Shown piece after piece: positions 50,893 through 61,709 of a stretch of 64,000 nt of DNA (the first letter of the stretch is position 1; every line of letters starts with the position of its first letter). The position numbers and the translations under genes are program-made. This DNA comes from an uncultured Spirochaetia bacterium (GTDB taxonomy: Bacteria > Spirochaetota > Spirochaetia > Sphaerochaetales > Sphaerochaetaceae), in the NCBI GenBank assembly GCA_905236385.1, contig CAJOOY010000034.1:14048-78047 (forward strand). Direction: 5' to 3'. A model generated the notes under the pieces. That model saw nothing but the letters and a program-made list of their open reading frames with translations. It did not search any database and was not told the origin of the DNA.

Positions 50893-50998
50893 ATCTCTAA
50901 ATATAAACAAAAAACCAACAATAGAAAAGGAAGGACAGAGAACAGACAAATACAAAACATTTGAAAACTGAGTCTTTATATTGGTTGTATATGCAAAC

Positions 50999-51027
50999 TT
51001 GATAGTGAAAATTGAAAGCAGTATAAT
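50999..51027 (+). promoter_or_regulatory. Near-consensus sigma-70 promoter upstream of cvpA
   Basis: TTGATA (50999-51004), 17-nt spacer, TATAAT (51022-51027). Confidence 0.5.
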
Positions 51028-51034
51028 GAGGCGG

Positions 51035-51523
51035 ATGAGTGCTTTAACTACTTTTGATTATATTGTTTTTGTTTTTATTATGATTTGGGGCATCTGGGGA
51101 GCCATCAAAGGCTTCCTTGAGGAGTTGTCTCAGAAATTTGGTTATGTAACCGGGTTTCTTGTGGCTCTCATGTTCACAGCTCTGTTTGCTTCATTCTTTG
51201 TAGACAGACTGTCCATTCCTTATTGGTTTGCAGCCTTTGTCTCGTACGTTATTCTTTTTATTCTCGGTTATCTGTTTATTAAGGTCGTAGGGAATGTCTT
51301 GCAGGCCATCTTCAAGACCATCCAGCTTAAGTTTCTTGATAATCTTCTGGGATTCTTTTTGGGGCTTTTTGAAGGAATTATCATTTTGGGCCTGTTGGAG
51401 ATAGTTCTTAAGTATCAGTCGCTGATAGACGTTTCTGCATATGTAAATTCAAGTGTAATTTATCAAAATATCATTGAACCGTTTACCGGCTTTGTTTCAA
51501 GTTTTATCAAGGGCCTTTGGTGA
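51035..51523 (+). CDS. cvpA: CvpA-family membrane protein
   Basis: Four-TM small membrane protein with a CvpA-like N-terminus (FDYIVFVFIMIWGIWGAIKGF). Start is ATG 51035, or 51026. Confidence 0.78.
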   Translation: MSALTTFDYIVFVFIMIWGIWGAIKGFLEELSQKFGYVTGFLVALMFTALFASFFVDRLSIPYWFAAFVSYVILFILGYLFIKVVGNVLQAIFKTIQLKFLDNLLGFFLGLFEGIIILGLLEIVLKYQSLIDVSAYVNSSVIYQNIIEPFTGFVSSFIKGLW

Positions 51524-52623
51524 TGATCTCTCCGCTTGAGAAAACACAGAAGGACCTTTCATTATTATTTGATAAATTACTTTCCTCAAACTCATTTCCT
51601 CGTGTAAGTCTTTTCTCCGGTCCATCTTTCAGTGGGCGCATGTACGCCTCTATTTTGATATCTGAGAAAACAGGGTCTGATTATTCATCAACTATTATTC
51701 TATCAGACAGAGAGTTTGGAAGAATCATTCCTGCTGCTATTGAGCTTTACAGAAAGAATAGAACTTATAGAGCAGCGAACTTTCTTAAGCATAATGTTTC
51801 TGTTTTTCTAAGTGAATTCAATGGAGCAATGCTTGAAAGTGGCTCTTCAACTGTAAAGAAAAAGTTTGAAACAGCAGGAAACTGTTATGATTTGATTTCA
51901 CGTTTACCAGATGTTCCAGAGAATGAAATAGAGTCATTTTGTTCTTCCTTGTCTAAAGAAGTAGCTAACGTTATGGGTAGGAAGACGTCCACAGGAGCAG
52001 TAACAGTTGGTCAGGTGAGAAACATAAAGGAGTGGTGCAGCACTTCTTCACTTGAAAACAAAAGAAAGACAGTAATTATTGAAGGCCTTGAAAACTCACT
52101 TCCTGCAACTTCAAATGCTTTATTAAAGATTCTGGAAGAGCCTCCTGAAAATACTACATTTATTCTCATTTCCTCTAATACTTCTTCCATACCTCCAACC
52201 ATCCTTAGTAGAGTAAGAGTCTTTAATTTTAAAGCTTTGGATAAGGACGCTCTTCGTTATATTTTTGACAGCATTTCCTTACCGCCTGACGCATTCAAGG
52301 ATTATGAGAGTTTTATCTGGAAGTACAGTGGAACAGATGAAGAGCTGTTGGATAAGAGTGCATTATCTCTTGTTACTACTGGAAAGACAGATGTAAGAAC
52401 ACTTTTAGGAGAGCTTGAGAAGAGTAAGTCTTATGACAGATTCTTTTATCTGGTTCTTAAATATTTGAAAGATAGTATTGAGCCGGACGACCCCGATTTT
52501 GAAAAAAAGTTGTATCTTTATAATGAATTGAGTACTTCAATTTCCAGAAGTAAGACTTTTAATCAGAACCAGAGACTCGTTTTTGATTACATAGTCTACA
52601 GGACGGGAGAGTTTATCAAATGA
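51523..52623 (+). CDS. holB: DNA polymerase III delta-prime subunit (clamp-loader AAA+ protein)
   Basis: Degenerate P-loop (LFSGPSFSGRMYAS) and the LLKILEEPPENTTFILIS box with SRV. ATG overlaps the cvpA stop (TGATG). Confidence 0.8.
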   Translation: MISPLEKTQKDLSLLFDKLLSSNSFPRVSLFSGPSFSGRMYASILISEKTGSDYSSTIILSDREFGRIIPAAIELYRKNRTYRAANFLKHNVSVFLSEFNGAMLESGSSTVKKKFETAGNCYDLISRLPDVPENEIESFCSSLSKEVANVMGRKTSTGAVTVGQVRNIKEWCSTSSLENKRKTVIIEGLENSLPATSNALLKILEEPPENTTFILISSNTSSIPPTILSRVRVFNFKALDKDALRYIFDSISLPPDAFKDYESFIWKYSGTDEELLDKSALSLVTTGKTDVRTLLGELEKSKSYDRFFYLVLKYLKDSIEPDDPDFEKKLYLYNELSTSISRSKTFNQNQRLVFDYIVYRTGEFIK

Positions 52624-53783: not shown

Positions 53784-55136
53784 ATGAAGAAAAGAATACT
53801 TATTGCAGATGATGAATTGAACATTAGAGAAGGTCTAGCTGCTGCAGTAGAGTCTGAAGGCTATGATTCTATTACTGCTGAAAACGGCTCTGTTGCCTGG
53901 AATATAATCCAAAAGCAGGGTGCTGATCTTGTTATAACAGATCTGCGCATGCCTGTTATGACCGGCTCTGAGCTTCTTGAAAAAATCTATTCTTCTTATC
54001 CAACTCTCCCAGTGGTTGTTCTTACAGGCCATGGCTCCATAGAAGATGCAGTAAAAGCCATGCAGAACGGAGCTGTAGATTTTCTTACTAAGCCTGTAAA
54101 TCTGGATCACCTGTTTGTCCTCATAAAAAAGACTCTGAGAGGTAGAGATATTGAGGAAAAAAATCTTGAGCTTCAGAGAGAGCTTGAGAACCTGAAGAAC
54201 AAGAGTTCTTATTCAAGCATAATCGGCAAGAGCAAGAAGGTTCAGGATCTTCTGGATACCATCAGTCAGGTTGCTTCTACAAAGGCCTCTGTATTGATTA
54301 CAGGTGAAAGCGGAGTTGGAAAAGAGCTTGTTGCAGATGCTATTGTCAACTTCAGTGACAGAAAAGATAAGAGTTTTGTTAAGGTTCACTGTGCAGCATT
54401 AAATTCAAATCTTCTTGAAAGTGAACTGTTCGGTCATGTAAAAGGAGCCTTCACGGGCGCTGTGTCCGATAAAAAGGGTCGCTTTGAACAGGCTGATGGA
54501 GGAACTATCTTCCTGGATGAGATTGGAGAGATAGACAAGAGTACCCAAATAAAGCTTTTAAGGGTTCTCCAAGAGCACGAGTTTGAAAAAGTCGGTGGTG
54601 AAAAGACCATCAAGACAGATGTAAGAGTAATAGCAGCTACAAACAGAAATCTGGAAGAAGAGATCAGAAAAGGAAATTTCCGAGAAGACCTTTATTACAG
54701 ATTAAATGTAGTAAATCTTAAAGTTCCGCCTCTAAGGGAAAGAAAAGAAGATATAATCCTACTCGCTACTCACTTTCTGAAACAATTCTGTGAAGAGAAT
54801 AACAAGAAGATTGAAGGTTTTTCAAACCAGGCTATGGCAGCAATTAATAATTATGACTGGCCAGGAAACATAAGAGAGCTTAGAAACTGCCTTGAAAGTG
54901 CAGTTGTCATGTGTAGAAACTCGATTATAGATTTAAATGATCTTCCACCTGCTGTCTCAAGTGCCGGAAGTTCTGTAGATATAGTTATTCCACTTGGAAC
55001 AACTATGGAGGAAGCTGAGAAGACAATAATTCTAGAAACACTTGCTTACTGTAAAGGCAACAAGAGTAAGACTGCAGATGTTTTGAATCTTGGAAGAAAA
55101 ACAGTATTAAGAAAGCTCGCTGAATATGAACAGTAA
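53784..55136 (+). CDS. Sigma-54-dependent response regulator (NtrC-family bacterial enhancer-binding protein)
   Basis: Receiver domain (DLVITDLRMP). AAA+ domain with GESGVGKE and the GAFTGA loop. C-terminal Fis-type HTH. Confidence 0.95.
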   Translation: MKKRILIADDELNIREGLAAAVESEGYDSITAENGSVAWNIIQKQGADLVITDLRMPVMTGSELLEKIYSSYPTLPVVVLTGHGSIEDAVKAMQNGAVDFLTKPVNLDHLFVLIKKTLRGRDIEEKNLELQRELENLKNKSSYSSIIGKSKKVQDLLDTISQVASTKASVLITGESGVGKELVADAIVNFSDRKDKSFVKVHCAALNSNLLESELFGHVKGAFTGAVSDKKGRFEQADGGTIFLDEIGEIDKSTQIKLLRVLQEHEFEKVGGEKTIKTDVRVIAATNRNLEEEIRKGNFREDLYYRLNVVNLKVPPLRERKEDIILLATHFLKQFCEENNKKIEGFSNQAMAAINNYDWPGNIRELRNCLESAVVMCRNSIIDLNDLPPAVSSAGSSVDIVIPLGTTMEEAEKTIILETLAYCKGNKSKTADVLNLGRKTVLRKLAEYEQ

Positions 55137-57240
55137 AGATATTTTTGACTTCTTCGATGCAGGTGGTTTATTAAGCCGGTCTTTGTCCAGGTTTGAATAC
55201 AGGGAAGGGCAGCAGCTAATGGCTCAGGACGCATTCAGCTGTTTTGAGAACAAATCTGTCCATGCAGTGGAAGCCGGGACTGGAATTGGTAAGAGTTTTG
55301 CCTACCTTGTTCCAGCACTGGATAGGGCATTCATAAATGATGAAGACAGAACTGTTATTGCAACCTCCACCATAAATTTGCAAAAACAGATAGTTAAAAA
55401 AGATATTCCTGCCCTGTTCAACACTTTTGGTAAGAAATGTAACGTTGAACTTGCTGTTGGAAGAAGTAACTATATCTGTAAAAGAAAGTTAAAAGAAATA
55501 TATGAATCAAATGCTCTCTTAGAGTCTGTGGGACAGGGCCGCCTTGCTGCATTTATGCATTTTGCTGAAAACTCTGAAACGGGGCTCTTAACTGACTTTA
55601 AGGGCTTTACTGATAAAGAGATACTCTCTGAAATAAGTTCGGATTCGGATACGTGCAGAGGTGCTCAGTGTCCGTTTTTTACTAAATGTTTCTACTTACA
55701 GGCCAAAAGAAGACTATCAAATGCTTCAGTAATTATCTGTAACCACCATTTGTTACTGACAGACTGTATTTCCAGAATGGAAAGTGAGATTGAATATGAC
55801 GAAGAAGCTGTTCTTCCGCCGTTTAAACACTTAGTGATAGATGAGGCACACAACCTGGAGAAAAATGCAACTTCTGTCTTTACAAGAGAGTTCAGTAATA
55901 TAGCTTTAAACAGACAGCTTGAGTACCTGCATTCAGATGCAAGAGCTAGAAAGATGGTAGATTCCGATAAAAATCTTGTTGATAAAATAGCTAAGCATAC
56001 AAAAGATCTGAACTTGGTAAATGAAGTACTTAATTCTATACAAACACTAAAGATGCTTTCTGACTCCATGAATGCTCAGATCTCAGCTTTCCTGCTGGAT
56101 AACCGAATAATGACTGTTCATGTAAATAAGAACAACATTCAAAGTCTGCTCTCGGCTATAGGAACAGCATGTTTGAATCTAAGTACTGCCGGAAAACAAC
56201 TGACTGATTTGTTAACAAGACTGCTGAGAAAGATTGTGAATACTGATGAGACGGAAACACTTATAAACCAGTTTTCTTCAAGGCTTGATAAACTTATTTC
56301 CCTGATAAATATAGTAGATGAGTTAACTCACCCGGAGAAGTGGACAGAGGATATTTATTATCTGGAGAACATCCGCAGAAGAGGAGGGTACACAGCAACT
56401 TTCAACATAGCTCCAATAAGTGTGGCTCCTCTTCTGAAAGACAATCTCTTCAATAAGATAAACAGTGTACTATGCACCAGTGCTACACTTGATTTAAATG
56501 ATGATTTTAAATTTTTCAGTCGTCAGGTCGGTTTACCTGTTGATACAAAGCCTTACGTTAAAAAGAAATACATGTCTCCATTTGAATACAAGAGCCACCT
56601 TATGCTCCTGACTCCTTCCGACTCTGTCCAGTACAATAATGAAGATATACCTTCCTATAAAGAGTTTCTTTGCTCATCCATTAAAAGCGCTGTTCTGAGT
56701 AGCGGTGGCGGGGCTCTTGTGCTCTTTACAAATGCAACTCTCATGAACGAAGTCTTTGAAGAGCTTCAGCCCCAGATCAGTGAAACGCTCGGTGTGAACT
56801 GCTATGTTCAGGGCCAGATGGAGCGTTACAATCTGATGGAAACTTTTAAAATGGAGGAAGATAGCGTACTCTTTGCCACAAATAGCTTTTGGGAAGGAGT
56901 AGATGCCCCGGGCAATACCTTACGTCTTGTTATTATCACAAAACTTCCCTTCATTATGCCAACTGATCCAATCTTTAAAGCCAGAAGTGAGAAGATTGAT
57001 AAAGATAATGGAGGAAGTGGCTTTATTCTTCTTTCTCTTCCTGAGGCAACCATGAAGCTGAAGCAGGGTTTTGGTCGGCTTATGAGGCACGCAGAAGATA
57101 AAGGAATAGTTCTGATTCTGGACTCAAGGATATCTAGCAAGGGCTACGGGCCGTACATGCTTTCAAATCTGCCGGAAAGCTACCACCCGGATTGCAGGCT
57201 GGCAAATATAAGTGATTATATTGAACAATTTCTCTATTAA
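55126..57240 (+). CDS. dinG: DinG/Rad3-family ATP-dependent DNA helicase
   Basis: GTGIGKSFAYLVP, DEAHNLE, a Cys cluster (CRGAQCPFFTKC) consistent with an Fe-S domain, and a C-terminal helicase domain (QGFGRLMR). Confidence 0.85.
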   Translation: MNSKDIFDFFDAGGLLSRSLSRFEYREGQQLMAQDAFSCFENKSVHAVEAGTGIGKSFAYLVPALDRAFINDEDRTVIATSTINLQKQIVKKDIPALFNTFGKKCNVELAVGRSNYICKRKLKEIYESNALLESVGQGRLAAFMHFAENSETGLLTDFKGFTDKEILSEISSDSDTCRGAQCPFFTKCFYLQAKRRLSNASVIICNHHLLLTDCISRMESEIEYDEEAVLPPFKHLVIDEAHNLEKNATSVFTREFSNIALNRQLEYLHSDARARKMVDSDKNLVDKIAKHTKDLNLVNEVLNSIQTLKMLSDSMNAQISAFLLDNRIMTVHVNKNNIQSLLSAIGTACLNLSTAGKQLTDLLTRLLRKIVNTDETETLINQFSSRLDKLISLINIVDELTHPEKWTEDIYYLENIRRRGGYTATFNIAPISVAPLLKDNLFNKINSVLCTSATLDLNDDFKFFSRQVGLPVDTKPYVKKKYMSPFEYKSHLMLLTPSDSVQYNNEDIPSYKEFLCSSIKSAVLSSGGGALVLFTNATLMNEVFEELQPQISETLGVNCYVQGQMERYNLMETFKMEEDSVLFATNSFWEGVDAPGNTLRLVIITKLPFIMPTDPIFKARSEKIDKDNGGSGFILLSLPEATMKLKQGFGRLMRHAEDKGIVLILDSRISSKGYGPYMLSNLPESYHPDCRLANISDYIEQFLY

Positions 57241-57258
57241 TTGTGTTAAACTTTTCCC

Positions 57259-58473
57259 ATGACAAATGACAAACACTCTGATACTTATCAAAGGCGTCCA
57301 AACGTTTTTTTATACTTTTTAGCTGGCATCTATTTTTCTGTTTATTGTAAGCTTTTCTGTCATCTAAGGATCAAAGGGGATAAACCCAAAGGACCAGCGG
57401 TAATTGTCAGTAACCATGCTTCAAATGCTGATTACAAGATAATAGCTGTGTCGGCCTATCCAAGAAGAATCAACTTTCTTGGTACCTATCATTGGTTTAC
57501 CTTCAAGAAGTTTGCCTTCTGGCTGAAGGTGATAGGTGTCATCCCGAAGTATCAGTTTGCCACTGACCTCAAGTCATTCAGAAAGATGCAGTACGTTCTC
57601 AAGGAAAACAAGGGCATGATTTACATTGCACCTGAAGGAACAATCTTTGCAAACGGCAAGTTGGGCCCTATCTCTCCTTCCATAGCAAAAATGATCCGTA
57701 TGTTCCGTGTTCCTGTCTATGCCTCCAGAATAGAAGGTACAGGTCTTGGCATGGCAAAATGGACCAGAAAGCTTCACAGAACCCATGTAACAGTAACTAC
57801 AAAGAAGATTATCAGTGAGGAAGAGTGCGGAAAACTTTCTGTAGATACGATTATGAACAGAATTATTAATTCTCTTTCTTATAATGAGTTCGATTATCAG
57901 AGTCTGAACGCTATCTCTTCAAAAGACAAGAATCTTGCTGAAGGTTTTGAGACCATGTTCTACAAATGTCCTTGCTGCAAAAGTGAATTTACCCTAAAGA
58001 CATATGAGAATACTGTTGAATGCACCCAGTGCGGGTCTAAGGCACATATAGGAATAGATTTCCGTTTCAAATGGAATGGGGAAAAACAGTATTTTGATAA
58101 CTATATTCAATGGTATGACTGGCAGAAAGAAGAGCTTAGAAAAGAGATTGAGAAACCGGATTTTAAGTTGGAAGATGAAGTTGAATATGCCATAGATAAA
58201 AGCGGGATTAACAATTATGTAAAAGTGGGGAAGGGAAAAATGACACTGTCTCACACAGGTTGGGACTATAAGGGAACATTTGATGGGAAATCTGTGGAAG
58301 AGCACGATGATTTGTCTCAGGTTTACCTGGCCACTTTAAAGGTAGGACTACACTTTGAACTGCCATACAGGTTTGATCACTGCAGGGTCTTCTATCCAAA
58401 AAACGGACTAACATCTATGAAATGGCATCTTGCCTCAAGAGTAATAAGTGAATTACTTGCCGAAAAAGGCTAA
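57259..58473 (+). CDS. PlsC-type acyltransferase with a C-terminal zinc-ribbon-containing extension
   Basis: HX4D motif NHASNAD and a PEGT box. CPCCKS...CTQCGS lies about 230 residues in. Confidence 0.75.
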   Translation: MTNDKHSDTYQRRPNVFLYFLAGIYFSVYCKLFCHLRIKGDKPKGPAVIVSNHASNADYKIIAVSAYPRRINFLGTYHWFTFKKFAFWLKVIGVIPKYQFATDLKSFRKMQYVLKENKGMIYIAPEGTIFANGKLGPISPSIAKMIRMFRVPVYASRIEGTGLGMAKWTRKLHRTHVTVTTKKIISEEECGKLSVDTIMNRIINSLSYNEFDYQSLNAISSKDKNLAEGFETMFYKCPCCKSEFTLKTYENTVECTQCGSKAHIGIDFRFKWNGEKQYFDNYIQWYDWQKEELRKEIEKPDFKLEDEVEYAIDKSGINNYVKVGKGKMTLSHTGWDYKGTFDGKSVEEHDDLSQVYLATLKVGLHFELPYRFDHCRVFYPKNGLTSMKWHLASRVISELLAEKG

Positions 58474-58503: not shown

Positions 58504-58764
58504 ATGACTATTAAACCACTAGGTGAAAGAGTTCTTGTCAAGGTTGAAAAAGCCGAAGAGAAGACAGCAAGCGGTCTTTTTATTCCTCAGACTTCTCAGG
58601 AAAAGACCCAGTTCGCTTTTGTAGAGGAAGTAGGACCGGAGGTCAAGACTGTAAAAAAAGGAGATAAGATTCTCCATGATAAATATGCCGGCACAGCTCT
58701 TAAGCTTGATTCAGAAGATTATCTGATTCTTGAGCTTAAAGATGTTCTGGCTGTTATCTGCTGA
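58504..58764 (+). CDS. groES: Co-chaperonin GroES
   Basis: IKPLGERVLVK and TASGLFIP mobile-loop context. 86 aa. Confidence 0.95.
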   Translation: MTIKPLGERVLVKVEKAEEKTASGLFIPQTSQEKTQFAFVEEVGPEVKTVKKGDKILHDKYAGTALKLDSEDYLILELKDVLAVIC

Positions 58765-58894: not shown

Positions 58895-59437
58895 ATGAAA
58901 AAATCTTTAATCCTTGTTCTGGTTGCTTTTGTCTGCCTCAGTGCAGTTTATGCTTCCGGAAATGCGGTAAAGGTTTCTGTTGTTCCTTACGGATGGCAGA
59001 TTACAACATCTTCAGCAGATAATGAGAATCCTTTTTCTTCCAAATATGGAATAGGTCTTGAAGCTTCTTATCAGCTGGGCATTGAAAAAGGCTTTTATGC
59101 TGAAATGGGTCTCGGATGGAATACGTTTATCATGAAAGATGACAGACCTGCTTTTACAAACATTCTTGCCTTTGCCGGTCTGGGATACAGGTATGATTTC
59201 AATGACAAGCTCTCCTGTTCTGCAAATGCAGGAGTTGGAACAGACACTCTGATTTATATTTCCAAAGCTTCAGAGACAGTCACTCTCAGATCAGCACTGG
59301 ACGTTTCCTATGCCATCAGCGACAGTCTTGAACTGTCTCTTGGATGCAGAGGAACATTCGGATTTGCAAAAGATGAGTCAGCCAACTATGTCAACTACAG
59401 AATTCTGCCTGTTCTAGGCATAAGCTACAAATTCTGA
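58895..59437 (+). CDS. Small outer-membrane beta-barrel protein (about 8 strands)
   Basis: Signal peptide ending VYA. Alternating amphipathic strands. C-terminal ISYKF with a terminal Phe, typical of BAM substrates. Confidence 0.72.
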   Translation: MKKSLILVLVAFVCLSAVYASGNAVKVSVVPYGWQITTSSADNENPFSSKYGIGLEASYQLGIEKGFYAEMGLGWNTFIMKDDRPAFTNILAFAGLGYRYDFNDKLSCSANAGVGTDTLIYISKASETVTLRSALDVSYAISDSLELSLGCRGTFGFAKDESANYVNYRILPVLGISYKF

Positions 59438-59451
59438 AAAGGAAGGAAAAC

Positions 59452-60381
59452 ATGAAAAAGATATCTATTATCCTTATTTCCATAGTCTTGCTTTTACTTG
59501 CATCCAGTTGTGATGGACAGGTATTTTCCGAACTTATGGATACTGAAACTCAAACAATTGATTATACAACAGTCCCTCTGACTCTTGAATTCACTGCTGA
59601 TGGCGAACTTTCATTTATTAATCTCAGAGACAGCCTGCAGTATTCTATCAATGGTGGAGCAAAAACAAATGCTCCAGACAGTATAGATGTTAAAGCAAAT
59701 GATATAGTTAGACTTTATGCTGAGGCTGCAGAGCAGTCAAATTCAAGCTATCTTAAGATCAACTGTACTTCTGATTGCTATGTATATGGCAATGTGATGA
59801 GTCTTCTTGATCCTGATAACTTTGCTACTAATACTGAAATAACAGTAAAAGGGGCTTTTTTAGGATTATTTTTAAATAATACACATATAAAGAATCATGA
59901 AACAAAGAAGCTGGTTCTGCCAGCAACTACATTGGCTGAATCTTGCTATGAAGATATGTTCTCTGGCTGTACAAGTCTGGAAGTGGCTCCTGAATTGCCA
60001 GCAACTACATTGGCTGAATCTTGCTATTTAAATATGTTCTATGGCTGTACAGGTCTGACTAAGGCTCCAGAACTGCCAGCAACAACATTGGCTAATTATT
60101 GCTATGCCTATATGTTCTATAACTGTATTGGTCTGACTAAGGCTCCAGAACTGCCAGCAACTACATTGGCTCATTCTTGCTATGAAGGTATGTTCTCTGA
60201 CTGTGCAAGTCTGATTTCAGTCACTTGTCTTGCAACAGATATCTCAGCAGGTTACTGTACAACTGATTGGCTTAAAGGTGTTTCACCTTCAGGAACCTTT
60301 ACAAAAGCTTCTGCTATGAATAGCTGGGAAAGTGGTTCCTATGGTATTCCTTCAGGATGGGATGTTGAGGATAAACAGTAA
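59452..60381 (+). CDS. Leucine-rich-repeat (BspA/TpLRR-like) surface lipoprotein
   Basis: Lipobox LLASSC. Four tandem 26-aa repeats of LPATTLAxxCYxxMFxGCxxLxxAPE. Confidence 0.82.
   Translation: MKKISIILISIVLLLLASSCDGQVFSELMDTETQTIDYTTVPLTLEFTADGELSFINLRDSLQYSINGGAKTNAPDSIDVKANDIVRLYAEAAEQSNSSYLKINCTSDCYVYGNVMSLLDPDNFATNTEITVKGAFLGLFLNNTHIKNHETKKLVLPATTLAESCYEDMFSGCTSLEVAPELPATTLAESCYLNMFYGCTGLTKAPELPATTLANYCYAYMFYNCIGLTKAPELPATTLAHSCYEGMFSDCASLISVTCLATDISAGYCTTDWLKGVSPSGTFTKASAMNSWESGSYGIPSGWDVEDKQ
59917..60228 (+). repeat. 4 x 78-bp in-frame tandem repeat inside the LRR lipoprotein gene
   Basis: Units start at 59917, 59995, 60073 and 60151. Each begins (C/T)TGCCAGCAAC(T/A)ACATTGGCT and is highly similar at the nucleotide level. 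Confidence 0.9.
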
Positions 60382-60423
60382 GAACTGTATATGATTATTC
60401 TTTGATTTGTTGATTCAACATTA

Positions 60424-60466
60424 GCCGCCTTGCTCATTTGGAGTGGGGCGGCATTCTTATTATTTT
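60424..60466 (+). terminator. Rho-independent terminator after the LRR lipoprotein gene
   Basis: 12-bp stem GCCGCCTTGCTC/GAGTGGGGCGGC (three G-U pairs), 5-nt loop, T-rich tail. Confidence 0.65.
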
Positions 60467-60535
60467 GGTTCATTTGATTTCTGTTTTATATTAATTAAAT
60501 TTGACGGTTTATATTTGTTTTAGTAACTTAGTTTC

Positions 60536-60829
60536 ATGAAGGGAACCATACCAAGACTTATATGCGAATACAGTGATCTTGTTCTTGCAGTTGCAGATGA
60601 CAGGAACAATGATCCGGCCTGGGATAGGTTTTATCATATCCAGATGGCCATTTATCTTCTCTCGCATGCTAATTGCAGCATAAATCTTGAAGATTCCATT
60701 CATGCCTATCACATGATTTTCAATGTCTGGCAGGACCTTGAAGAGTGGTGTGGACCCTCTTGTTGTGGTCTTTCTGACCCTGAATCCATCTTCAAATCTA
60801 TCCCAATAGACTTTTTAGGGTCAAATTGA
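60536..60829 (+). CDS. Orphan hypothetical ORF (coding status and strand uncertain)
   Basis: 97-codon ATG ORF with no SD. The opposite strand is also open over about 100 codons. No motif recognised by eye. Confidence 0.3.
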   Translation: MKGTIPRLICEYSDLVLAVADDRNNDPAWDRFYHIQMAIYLLSHANCSINLEDSIHAYHMIFNVWQDLEEWCGPSCCGLSDPESIFKSIPIDFLGSN

Positions 60830-60938
60830 CGCATTTTTAATTGTTTTTTTGACTACAGTATCATTTTGACACTCTTAATTTAACTGTTCATTGTTTTTGG
60901 TTGTGTTTTAAGGTCTTTAAATGCATGTTTTTTGAATT

Positions 60939-60954
60939 TGGCACGAACCTTGCT
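60939..60954 (+). promoter_or_regulatory. Sigma-54 (RpoN) -24/-12 promoter
   Basis: TGGCACGAACCTTGCT matches TGGCAC-N5-TTGC at every specified position. Oriented toward the sigma factor gene. Confidence 0.7.
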
Positions 60955-60956
60955 TG

Positions 60957-61709
60957 ATGTTTGACATGAACAATGTAAATTATTTGATTGACAACGAACA
61001 AAGCTCTCTTACAACATACCTCAAGGAAGTTGAGAGAATTCCCCTTCTGACACGTGAGCAGGAGTATGAACTGGCTCTCAAGGCTAAAAACGGAGACTCT
61101 CTAGCTAGAGAAAAACTCGTTGAATCAAACTCAAGATTTGTAATCAGTGTTGCTAAACAGTTTCAGGGAAGGGGACTTCCACTTGAAGATTTAATCAGTG
61201 AAGGAAACTTGGGTTTACTCATTGCTATAGATAAGTTTGAACCTGAAACAGGAAACCACTTCATAAGCTACGCCATCTGGTGGATCAGACAGTCCATTCT
61301 TAAGGCACTGAACGAGAAGTCCAGAATGGTCAGGCTTCCTGCAAACAAAATTAAAGATGCAGATATATATGGAATAGATGTAACCAGTCTTGATACTCCT
61401 ATTAATGATGATGAAGACTCATCTCTTGGAGATGTTATCCAGAGCACTGATGACAACCCAGAAGATTCAGTTATGGAGCAGACACTCACAGAAGCCATAG
61501 ATAAGGCGCTCTCATCCTTTGATGATAAGGAGAGAGATATAATTATCAGACGTTTTGGCCTTCATAACACAGAACCCATGAGTCTTCAGGAAATTGGCTC
61601 ACTCTACGGGGTAACCAAGGAAAGAATCAGACAGATTGAGAAAAAAGTTCTTACATCCATGAAACAGATAGATGAAGTGCAGGATTTAAGGGCTTATATG
61701 GCCTCTTAA
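60957..61709 (+). CDS. Sigma-70-family alternative sigma factor (RpoS/RpoD-like regions 1.2-2 and 4; region 3 nearly absent)
   Basis: DLISEGNLGLLIAIDKF and FISYAIWWIRQSI (regions 2.2-2.4). Region 4.2 HTH: SLQEIGSLYGVTKERIRQIE. Start ambiguous: TTG 60954, ATG 60957 or ATG 60966. Confidence 0.9.
   Translation: MFDMNNVNYLIDNEQSSLTTYLKEVERIPLLTREQEYELALKAKNGDSLAREKLVESNSRFVISVAKQFQGRGLPLEDLISEGNLGLLIAIDKFEPETGNHFISYAIWWIRQSILKALNEKSRMVRLPANKIKDADIYGIDVTSLDTPINDDEDSSLGDVIQSTDDNPEDSVMEQTLTEAIDKALSSFDDKERDIIIRRFGLHNTEPMSLQEIGSLYGVTKERIRQIEKKVLTSMKQIDEVQDLRAYMAS

Follow-up and report, generated by a model that had tools for sequence, protein, structure and literature searches.

A conserved -24/-12 promoter in front of an alternative sigma factor gene in Sphaerochaetaceae: a likely sigma-54-dependent sigma cascade with a probably leaderless transcript

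Introduction

In the Lyme-disease spirochaete, virulence is governed by a master switch, the RpoN-RpoS pathway. Most accounts treat this pathway as peculiar to Borrelia, and one of its puzzles is an activator that needs no enhancer. In the 64-kb stretch of contig CAJOOY010000034.1 analysed here (hereafter the window), a sequence of the RpoN (sigma-54) type stands in front of a gene for a sigma-70-family factor, and the same stretch encodes a histidine kinase and an NtrC-type response regulator. The locus therefore raises the question of whether a sigma-54 promoter controls a second sigma factor in this organism and, if so, which activator acts there and what kind of transcript results. A preliminary description of the window had proposed a Borrelia-type cascade in a Treponema-like spirochaete. 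The close homologues of the sigma factor are assigned by NCBI to metagenome-assembled genomes (MAGs) of Sphaerochaetaceae, and by these names the organism is a Sphaerochaetaceae bacterium rather than a Treponema-like one. The comparative analysis below makes it likely that a working sigma-54 promoter controls an alternative sigma-70-family factor in a two-tier cascade.

Results

Conservation of the -24/-12 element

The sequence TGGCACGAACCTTGC (60939-60953, + strand) agrees with TGGCAC-N5-TTGC at all 10 specified bases and is followed by T at 60954. Its GG and GC doublets are 10 bp apart, which is within the consensus. The element is co-oriented with the sigma-70-family gene and lies directly 5' of it, as the preliminary description had stated; the product of this gene has Pfam regions 1.2, 2, 3 (partial) and 4. 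No other perfect match was present on either strand of the window. About 0.1 chance matches had been expected beforehand; dinucleotide-preserving shuffles of the window gave a mean of 0.10 perfect matches, with at least one match in 9 of 100 shuffles. Sites with two or fewer mismatches numbered 39 against 44.9 expected, and the window thus has no general excess of such motifs. Taken alone, the lone perfect match is only mildly significant (p ~0.09); it counts as more than a chance match because it is conserved in relatives.

Conservation was evaluated in a comparison set of 173 loci (3.36 Mb counting both strands). Scans of genome and metagenome contigs yielded 46% identity for the closest among the matches listed, and close relatives were fetched individually. 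The Sphaerochaetaceae orthologous loci are L081-L088 and L169-L172, and further orthologous loci come from named genomes. On both strands of the 173 loci, 79 matches of at least 9/10 to the consensus were found; 35 of these fell in the 200-nt stretch that precedes the sigma gene, against 0.46 predicted from the density elsewhere. At least 35 loci have a -24/-12 element in front of the orthologous gene, which encodes a short sigma factor of 244-295 aa. The alignment of orthologous upstream regions, which the preliminary description had proposed as a check, showed that the GG/GC element is conserved while its flanks diverge: in the intergenic alignment with the four closest Sphaerochaetaceae loci, TTGGCA[C/T]G-N4-CTTGCT is kept between diverged flanks, and coding third positions differ by ~36% between the window and these loci. 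Information content, computed over an anchored table of 27 loci, was maximal at TTGGCA and TTGC, with a fixed 10-bp spacing from GG to GC.

Element-bearing loci were found in a Spirochaetales MAG (L001), Treponema MAGs (L002, L010, L013 and L035), Rectinema subterraneum (L004), Breznakiella homolactica (L014), a Sphaerochaeta MAG (L012) and a Brevinematales MAG (L016), and their sigma factors are likewise short (279-295 aa). The -24/-12 element was missing upstream of the related sigma genes that the data set contains from Bacteroidota and Gemmatimonadota. The promoter-bearing sigma factors carry the signature ILKA..EKSRM.RLP after region 2.4, whereas their promoter-less relatives read ILQAL.EQSRIVRLP; this common signature indicates that the promoter-bearing sigma factors are one protein family.

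Two more perfect TGGCAC-N5-TTGC matches were seen in the comparison set, at 3707 of L094 and at 4630 of L069 (- strand), and in L089 a 9/10 match (TGGTACTCACATTGC) occupies almost the position of the L094 site. Separately, the gene tsaD (COG0533) follows the sigma gene, in the same orientation and at a distance of a few kb, in L087 (12383-13393), L170 (13002-14012) and L086 (3948-4961). COG0533 was reported as a Spirochaetia-specific 'sigma-54-regulated' cluster (PMC12316311), which may be an echo, through operon assignment, of the -24/-12 promoter of the sigma gene.

Start codon and predicted transcription start of the sigma gene

The preliminary description had let the sigma gene begin at 60957, but the conserved start is the ATG at 60966. 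Of 19 aligned homologues, 14 (every one of 244-247 aa and three longer homologues) start at the column M-N/K-N/K that corresponds to this ATG, and the equivalent codon is closely preceded by an in-frame stop in L081, L082 and L083. Conserved starts at 60954 or 60957 were ruled out by these stops and by the MNN column of the homologues; a start at 60957 would also lie upstream of the predicted transcription start.

Exactly 12 nt separate the C of the GC doublet from the A of this ATG in the window, L081-L083, L084/85, L086, L087/88 and L170, and 11 nt in L172. In none of these is there a Shine-Dalgarno sequence at the sigma ATG, nor does one precede TTG 60984 or any other codon near 60966 in the window. 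Since a strong Shine-Dalgarno sequence (GGAG, GAGG or AGGA at the right distance) was found at 32 of the 55 window open reading frames (ORFs), its lack at the sigma gene is an exception. By contrast, L169 and L171 (same family, 60-61% identity) and all Treponema-type loci have a gap of 22-91 nt with GGAG or GGAGG before the ATG in every case, giving leaders of 10-80 nt. L169 keeps ...TTGCTTGTCTGTTGGCAT at the same register, followed by AGGAGATACCGAC-ATG, which indicates that 'CAT' at GC+12 to +14 is an initiation region and not a codon in that lineage. Downstream of the -12 element, no feature is better conserved across the family than the CA at GC+12/+13, and this holds for leadered members too. 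The simplest reading of these alignments is that transcription starts at the A (GC+13) after a pyrimidine, and that in the window subclade this A would be the first base of the ATG. Based on the fixed gap of 11-12 nt and the absence of a Shine-Dalgarno sequence, as opposed to the leaders with GGAGG in relatives, the sigma mRNA is most likely leaderless, a prediction that we regard as probable.

The first 50 nt of the predicted mRNAs were weakly structured, and none differed from shuffled controls. The AUG was unpaired in the 5' folds of the window, L081, L082 and L170 and lay within a weak helix in L084 and L087. A sigma-70 promoter scan gave no + strand promoter between the 97-aa ORF that precedes the sigma gene and the sigma gene itself, a terminator scan predicted none between 60830 and 60965, and Rfam searches of 60300-61100 returned chance-level matches only (E 0.18-0.93), with no known RNA element.

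Features of the sigma factor

Homologues of the sigma factor at 63-98% identity are 244-250 aa long. These window-clade sigma factors lack ~28-37 residues of region 3.0/3.1, at 61340-61360 in the window (residues ~125-135), which are present in the relatives of 274-297 aa and in the solved SigA and RpoS structures; they may be unable to read extended -10 elements. The window sigma scored 224 bits with TIGR02394 (proteobacterial RpoS; cut-off 378.7), 214 bits with NF004207 (cut-off 394) and 190-199 bits with RpoD models, below the cut-offs of the latter as well. By those curated models it is, thus, neither RpoS nor RpoD. The solved SigA and RpoS chains matched it equally (E ~1e-50), and close homologues are labelled 'RpoD/SigA' by the Prokaryotic Genome Annotation Pipeline.

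Tandem palindromes upstream of the promoter

Upstream of the window promoter, GGGTCA-N3-TGACCC occurs in two or three copies 40-52 bp apart (copies A, B and C; Table 1). An equivalent of copy B is present in L081-L084, L087, L170 and L005, and copy C reads GGGTCATTTTGACCC in L081-L083. Copy A is also kept in L081-L083, where coding constraint is inseparable from site conservation. The density of the core GTCA-N3-TGAC (one mismatch or fewer) was 4.5/kb in the 230 nt upstream of promoter-bearing loci as compared to 0.31/kb overall, a 14-fold difference, and palindrome pairs 40-41 bp apart and 75-130 bp from the GG doublet were found in L005, L084, L087, L089 and L094. By their position, symmetry and spacing, the palindromes fit candidate binding sites of a dimeric activator with a Fis-type helix-turn-helix (HTH). 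Copy C of the window folds at only -1.1 kcal/mol, and it is therefore not a terminator there.

The kinase-activator pair

The preliminary description had named an NtrC-type regulator with an intact receiver Asp, Walker A motif and GAFTGA loop, and all three were confirmed. The candidate activator matched Response_reg, Sigma54_activat (E 1e-72), AAA_lid_14 and HTH_8 of Pfam and has the receiver D53, the Walker A motif GESGVGK at 174-180 and GAFTGA at 221-226. The kinase gene lies immediately upstream, the two genes being 3 nt apart. The kinase had been described as a cytoplasmic PAS kinase. Its cytoplasmic nature is upheld by the absence of a hydrophobic or transmembrane segment (maximum Kyte-Doolittle value 1.2), and its PAS_9 match is sub-threshold (E 0.016). 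The best NCBIfam match of the kinase, below the cut-off, is AtoS, and it aligns to the PAS-containing half of that model.

Kinase orthologues occupy the same position in L087, L170, L172, L084 and L005, and activator orthologues 64-90% identical to that of the window are syntenic with the sigma gene in L083, L084, L087 and L005. L087 and L170 preserve the order secA, cvpA, holB, kinase, activator, dinG, (acyltransferase), groES, small ORF, sigma, ppdK, which is partly seen in L083, L084 and L172; in L005, kinase, activator and dinG precede the sigma gene. This gene order is suggestive of a functional link between the pair and the sigma gene but is not proof of one.

An NtrC-type activator 39-44% identical to that of the window was also observed 3-5 kb upstream of an RpoD-like sigma gene in nine Gemmatimonadota loci (L018, L021, L028, L038, L044, L051, L053, L057 and L070). 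No -24/-12 element precedes the sigma gene in these nine loci, and the linkage may reflect ancient synteny or coincidence.

The 97-aa ORF and other genes around the promoter

The stretch around the promoter, described beforehand as being without a confidently assigned gene, contains a conserved 97-aa ORF. Its orthologues in L081-L088 and L169-L172 are 32-89% identical, and the differences from L083 are distributed 5:4:35 over the codon positions, which indicates purifying selection. No Pfam family was matched by its product. The protein belongs to a small-protein family of 93-152 aa with the motifs DP.W.RFY.IQM and LFK[ST]I.IDF, whose genes are in every case immediate upstream neighbours of the sigma gene; further members are encoded at L081 740-1036, L087 7571-7900, L170 8571-8903 and L169 8399-8857, and a hidden Markov model of the family detected distant homologues at the same position in L012, L005, L009, L004 and L007. 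In two of the longer homologues (L009 and L004), TPR-like repeats and a C-terminal SEC-C motif (CxCGSGLPxxxCCGR) were matched by Pfam below threshold. An AlphaFold2 model of the 97-aa protein, built on an alignment of 3 sequences, had a mean predicted local distance difference test value of 53, too poor for a fold search. This protein may be a partner or regulator of the sigma factor.

Six nucleotides separate the predicted -10 element of the 97-aa ORF from its ATG (TAACTT-AGTTTC-ATG), and this geometry of -10, 6 nt and ATG, free of a Shine-Dalgarno sequence, is kept in L081, L082, L083, L084, L087 and L170; in L171, L172 and L169 the small ORF has a Shine-Dalgarno sequence instead. The acyltransferase gene likewise reads TGtTAAACT-TTTCCC-ATG (57220-57261 region) and has no Shine-Dalgarno sequence. 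The geometry of these two genes suggests sigma-70-driven leaderless mRNAs, and leaderless genes thus seem not to be rare in this organism.

A strong intrinsic terminator (60424-60452; 12-bp stem, 8 GC pairs, T-run) follows the 309-aa ORF. The unit formed by the 97-aa ORF and the sigma gene is therefore transcribed separately from the upstream genes. At the equivalent position, L083, L084 and L087 have neither the 309-aa ORF nor the beta-barrel-like gene that precedes it. Inside the 309-aa ORF, two near-identical hairpin-like sequences, GCCAGCAAC[A/T]ACATTGGC, were seen 78 bp apart (60075-60092 and 60153-60170); these duplicates, in an ORF with no Pfam match, point to an internally repeated protein.

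Table 1. Positions of genes and sequence elements in the window.
Feature	Position	Strand	Basis or remark
CvpA	50981-51523		Pfam/NCBIfam
DNA polymerase III delta'	51517-52623		Pfam/NCBIfam
Cytoplasmic sensor histidine kinase, 386 aa	52620-53780	+	Pfam HisKA, HATPase_c
NtrC-type sigma-54 enhancer-binding response regulator, 450 aa	53784-55136	+	Pfam; candidate activator
DinG/YoaA helicase	55126-57240		Pfam/NCBIfam
Acyltransferase	57259-58473		Pfam/NCBIfam
GroES	58504-58764		Pfam/NCBIfam
Outer-membrane beta-barrel-like protein	58895-59437		Pfam/NCBIfam
309-aa ORF	59452-60381		No family
Putative sigma-70-like promoter of the 97-aa ORF	TTGACG 60501-60506, 17-nt spacer, TAACTT 60524-60529	+	Read from the sequence
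Conserved 97-aa ORF	60536-60829	+	Directly upstream of the sigma gene
Palindrome copy A, TGGTCTTTCTGACCC	60766-60780		Inside the 97-aa ORF; possible third enhancer site
Palindrome copy B, GGGTCAAATTGACGC	60818-60832		Overlaps the stop codon of the 97-aa ORF; candidate upstream activating sequence, centre 115 bp upstream of GG
Palindrome copy C, GTATCATTTTGACAC	60858-60872		Candidate enhancer, centre 75 bp upstream of GG, 40 bp from copy B
Sigma-54 (-24/-12) promoter, TGGCACGAACCTTGCT	60939-60954	+	GG 60940-60941, GC 60952-60953
Predicted transcription start	60965-60966	+	C at -1, A at +1 (A of the start codon); from spacing and conserved CA
Short alternative sigma-70-family factor, 247 aa	60966-61709	+	Pfam; without region 3.0/3.1
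Pyruvate phosphate dikinase (ppdK)	from ~61804		Runs off the window end

Discussion

Based on these results, the regulation of the sigma gene is proposed to be as follows. The cytoplasmic histidine kinase would phosphorylate the NtrC-type response regulator on D53, and the activator would oligomerise on the tandem GGGTCA-N3-TGACCC palindromes, which are centred ~100 and ~140 bp upstream of the predicted start. By DNA looping and ATP hydrolysis, it would then open the closed complex of sigma-54 RNA polymerase at the GG and GC doublets (for enhancer-dependent sigma-54 promoters in general, see PMC3037356). Transcription would start at A60966 or 1 nt before it, the mRNA would begin with its own AUG and be translated without a Shine-Dalgarno sequence, and the 247-aa sigma factor would redirect RNA polymerase to a regulon. 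Judged from the comparative data, the promoter is very likely functional and in control of the sigma gene, and we are inclined to see in the neighbouring regulator the activator that acts on it.

Several observations weigh against this proposal or parts of it. An RpoN-box regular expression applied to six frames of the window and of all 173 loci detected no rpoN, and the presumed presence of rpoN in the window genome therefore rests on relatives. A survey of 2025 reported rpoN in 15 of 15 Spirochaetia genomes, with SpiGrapes_1229 in Sphaerochaeta pleomorpha and JFL75_00620 in Breznakiella homolactica, the genome of L014; a count of 8 for Sphaerochaeta pleomorpha in its supplementary table may refer to activators, this reading being uncertain (PMC12316311). 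The kinase-activator pair is 5.8 kb away from the promoter, with dinG, the acyltransferase gene, groES and two more ORFs in between, and a pair next to the sigma gene was found in no loci other than those of Sphaerochaetaceae and L005. Of the Treponema-type loci, most (L001-L004, L006-L016) showed no activator within 6 kb upstream, and Sphaerochaeta genomes probably hold several activators. Given the intervening genes and the few syntenic loci, the synteny may be a matter of inheritance rather than function, and a real promoter could be activated by another enhancer-binding protein encoded elsewhere. This is somewhat unlikely in our view. From 53% to 90% sigma identity, and also in L005, the loci preserve the order kinase, activator, dinG ... 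sigma, the order of the pair parallels that of Borrelia, where hk2 is immediately upstream of rrp2, and no other activator was seen in any fetched flank. A chance match, or a conserved site for something else such as a repressor operator, would be compatible with the single perfect match in 128 kb when this is taken by itself, but it is strongly disfavoured and hardly credible in view of the excess of matches upstream of orthologues, the information peaks at TTGGCA and TTGC, the co-occurrence with a GAFTGA activator and the likeness to the validated Borrelia promoter.

The roles of the palindromes and of the predicted start site have also to be weighed against alternatives. In L081 and L082, copy C forms a 7-bp GC-rich hairpin followed by seven T (-9.6 kcal/mol) and could terminate the upstream ORF, so that the palindromes might be terminators of the 97-aa ORF, or else sites of an unrelated regulator, rather than enhancers. 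We consider this unlikely: copy C of the window lacks a fold of such stability, the L087 copies have no T-run, copy B overlaps a stop codon, the terminator scan found none at the window palindromes, and the paired arrangement recurs in five loci. As for the transcript, a start at GC+14, as in Borrelia, would fall on T60967 and destroy the AUG, so that a difference of 1 nt matters here. Moreover, no terminator is predicted at 60830-60965, and a bicistronic RNA is thus possible. Translation from a downstream start (e.g. TTG 60984) or from read-through RNA of the upstream ORF promoter is nevertheless quite unlikely, because 8 independent loci all agree in the ATG column and in the 12-nt spacing, the in-frame stops of L081, L082 and L083 lie upstream, no Shine-Dalgarno sequence precedes the ATG or TTG 60984 while every relative with a longer gap has GGAGG, and the ATG shows conservation of a pyrimidine at -1 and of A at +1. 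A leaderless transcript from the -24/-12 promoter thus remains the preferred reading.

The conservation of the promoter in Sphaerochaeta, Treponema, Rectinema, Breznakiella and Brevinematales gives the Borrelia pathway an evolutionary context. The form of the cascade described here is probably ancestral and enhancer-bearing and widespread in Spirochaetia, and the leaderless arrangement is probably derived in a Sphaerochaetaceae subclade. As a fuller and more tentative scenario, for which we would not claim even odds, a cascade from sigma-54 to a second sigma factor would be ancestral to Spirochaetia and originally enhancer-dependent, with tandem GGGTCA-N3-TGACCC sites, the transcript would have become leaderless after the promoter moved flush to the ATG in one Sphaerochaetaceae subclade, and the choice of start site would have become coupled to translation. 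If the enhancer-bearing form is ancestral, the Borrelia state (no enhancer, long regulated 5' untranslated region (UTR)) would be derived. If the transcript is leaderless, read-through RNA would be poorly translated for lack of a Shine-Dalgarno sequence at its internal AUG, and the protein would come only from sigma-54-started transcripts; translation would be coupled to the choice of transcription start site, and the 5' UTR on which Borrelia layers small RNA and BosR control would have been lost. The flush promoter-ATG arrangement would then be a rare and clean case of a sigma-54-initiated leaderless mRNA, useful for work on the coupling of start-site choice and translation. For work in cultivable Sphaerochaeta or Treponema, tangible starting points are offered by the candidate enhancer sequence and by the conserved small gene that may encode a partner.

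Known leaderless mRNAs, such as those of mycobacteria, share with the predicted sigma transcript an AUG at the 5' end and the lack of a Shine-Dalgarno sequence. To our knowledge, however, they arise from sigma-70-type promoters, whereas the one predicted here would arise from a sigma-54 promoter. Leaderless mRNAs are also documented in Borrelia, with 85 transcripts whose UTR is shorter than 10 nt (PMC5314773). No sigma-54-initiated leaderless mRNA was apparent in the literature, as judged by titles and abstracts.

Among better-studied systems, glnAp2 of enterobacteria has two dyad-symmetric activator sites ~100-140 bp upstream of the start and ~4 helical turns apart. The NtrB-NtrC/glnAp2 system resembles the window in this pair of dyad sites, in a GAFTGA-type AAA+ activator with a Fis-type HTH and in the TGGCAC-N5-TTGC promoter; it differs in its half-site (GGGTCA/TGACCC in the window) and in its metabolic target as compared to a sigma factor, and the window transcript is predicted to be leaderless. 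Vibrio and related gamma-proteobacteria have flagellar hierarchies leading from sigma-54 to FliA (sigma-28), in which a sigma-54 promoter likewise precedes a sigma-70-family gene. The window sigma is group-2-like (regions 1.2 to 4) and not a FliA, and Sphaerochaeta is non-motile. In the sigma-54 regulon survey, sigma genes of COG0568 and COG1191 were flagged and a 'consistent association' of COG0568 genes with sigma-54 promoters was stated, spirochaetes and the window locus not being singled out (PMC12316311).

Within the spirochaetes, Hpk2-Rrp2 of Treponema denticola (TDE1970/TDE1969) consists, like the window pair, of a cytoplasmic PAS-type kinase and a predicted sigma-54 activator, and this Rrp2 'remains unstudied' (PMC12070737); regulation by sigma factors in this species 'has not been clarified' (PMC7586716). 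The Treponema MAG loci L002, L010, L013 and L035 have the same element before the orthologous sigma gene but, unlike the window, leaders with a Shine-Dalgarno sequence, and the conserved promoter offers a testable target for the Treponema denticola Rrp2. The preliminary description had known of no characterisation of the cascade in a Treponema-like spirochaete, and in agreement with this we found no sigma-54-dependent sigma gene described in the literature for Treponema or Sphaerochaeta.

In Borrelia burgdorferi, 62 bp separate the rpoS promoter from the ATG. The transcription start, which is 14 bp beyond the GC doublet, disappears in an rpoN mutant; no binding of Rrp2 occurs in the 238 bp upstream of rpoS, and its action needs no enhancer; and hk2 adjoins rrp2 as cited above (PMC1976401). 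The primers of that study give the rpoS promoter as TTGGCACAGTTTTTGCATG, and the 743-bp Borrelia-group contig L173 begins TTAAATTGGCACGGTTTTTGCATG, contains GGGGAG and has its ATG 63 nt after the GC doublet. A partial Borrelia RpoS was stitched from the frameshifted rpoS of L173. It is 31% identical to the window sigma, which is thus not demonstrable as a Borrelia RpoS orthologue by similarity, a further point against a strictly Borrelia-type reading. Its median score was 115 bits to the promoter-bearing spirochaete sigma factors and 121 bits to those of other phyla; with no preferential similarity, similarity does not decide the orthology, and a weak K-[ST]-R-[LM] signature common to Borrelia RpoS and the promoter-bearing sigma factors is the only hint of it. 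The Borrelia gene has neighbours (flgI and flgJ) other than the 97-aa ORF and ppdK of the window, and the window sigma lacks region 3.0/3.1. Borrelia rpoS also has a GGGGAG Shine-Dalgarno sequence and a 5' UTR of ~50 nt under post-transcriptional control, whereas the window has a 12-nt gap and no Shine-Dalgarno sequence, and Borrelia Rrp2 is enhancer-independent, whereas the window has conserved tandem candidate enhancer palindromes. The claim of a Borrelia-type cascade thus probably does not extend to the long 5' UTR and to enhancer independence, but these are Borrelia particulars and not cascade logic. It stands for the parts that the two systems share: a promoter of the same -24/-12 type (TTGGCACGGTTTTTGCAT in L173) directly 5' of a short sigma-70-family gene, and a two-component activator adjacent to its kinase, whose gene is immediately upstream of that of the NtrC-type response regulator.

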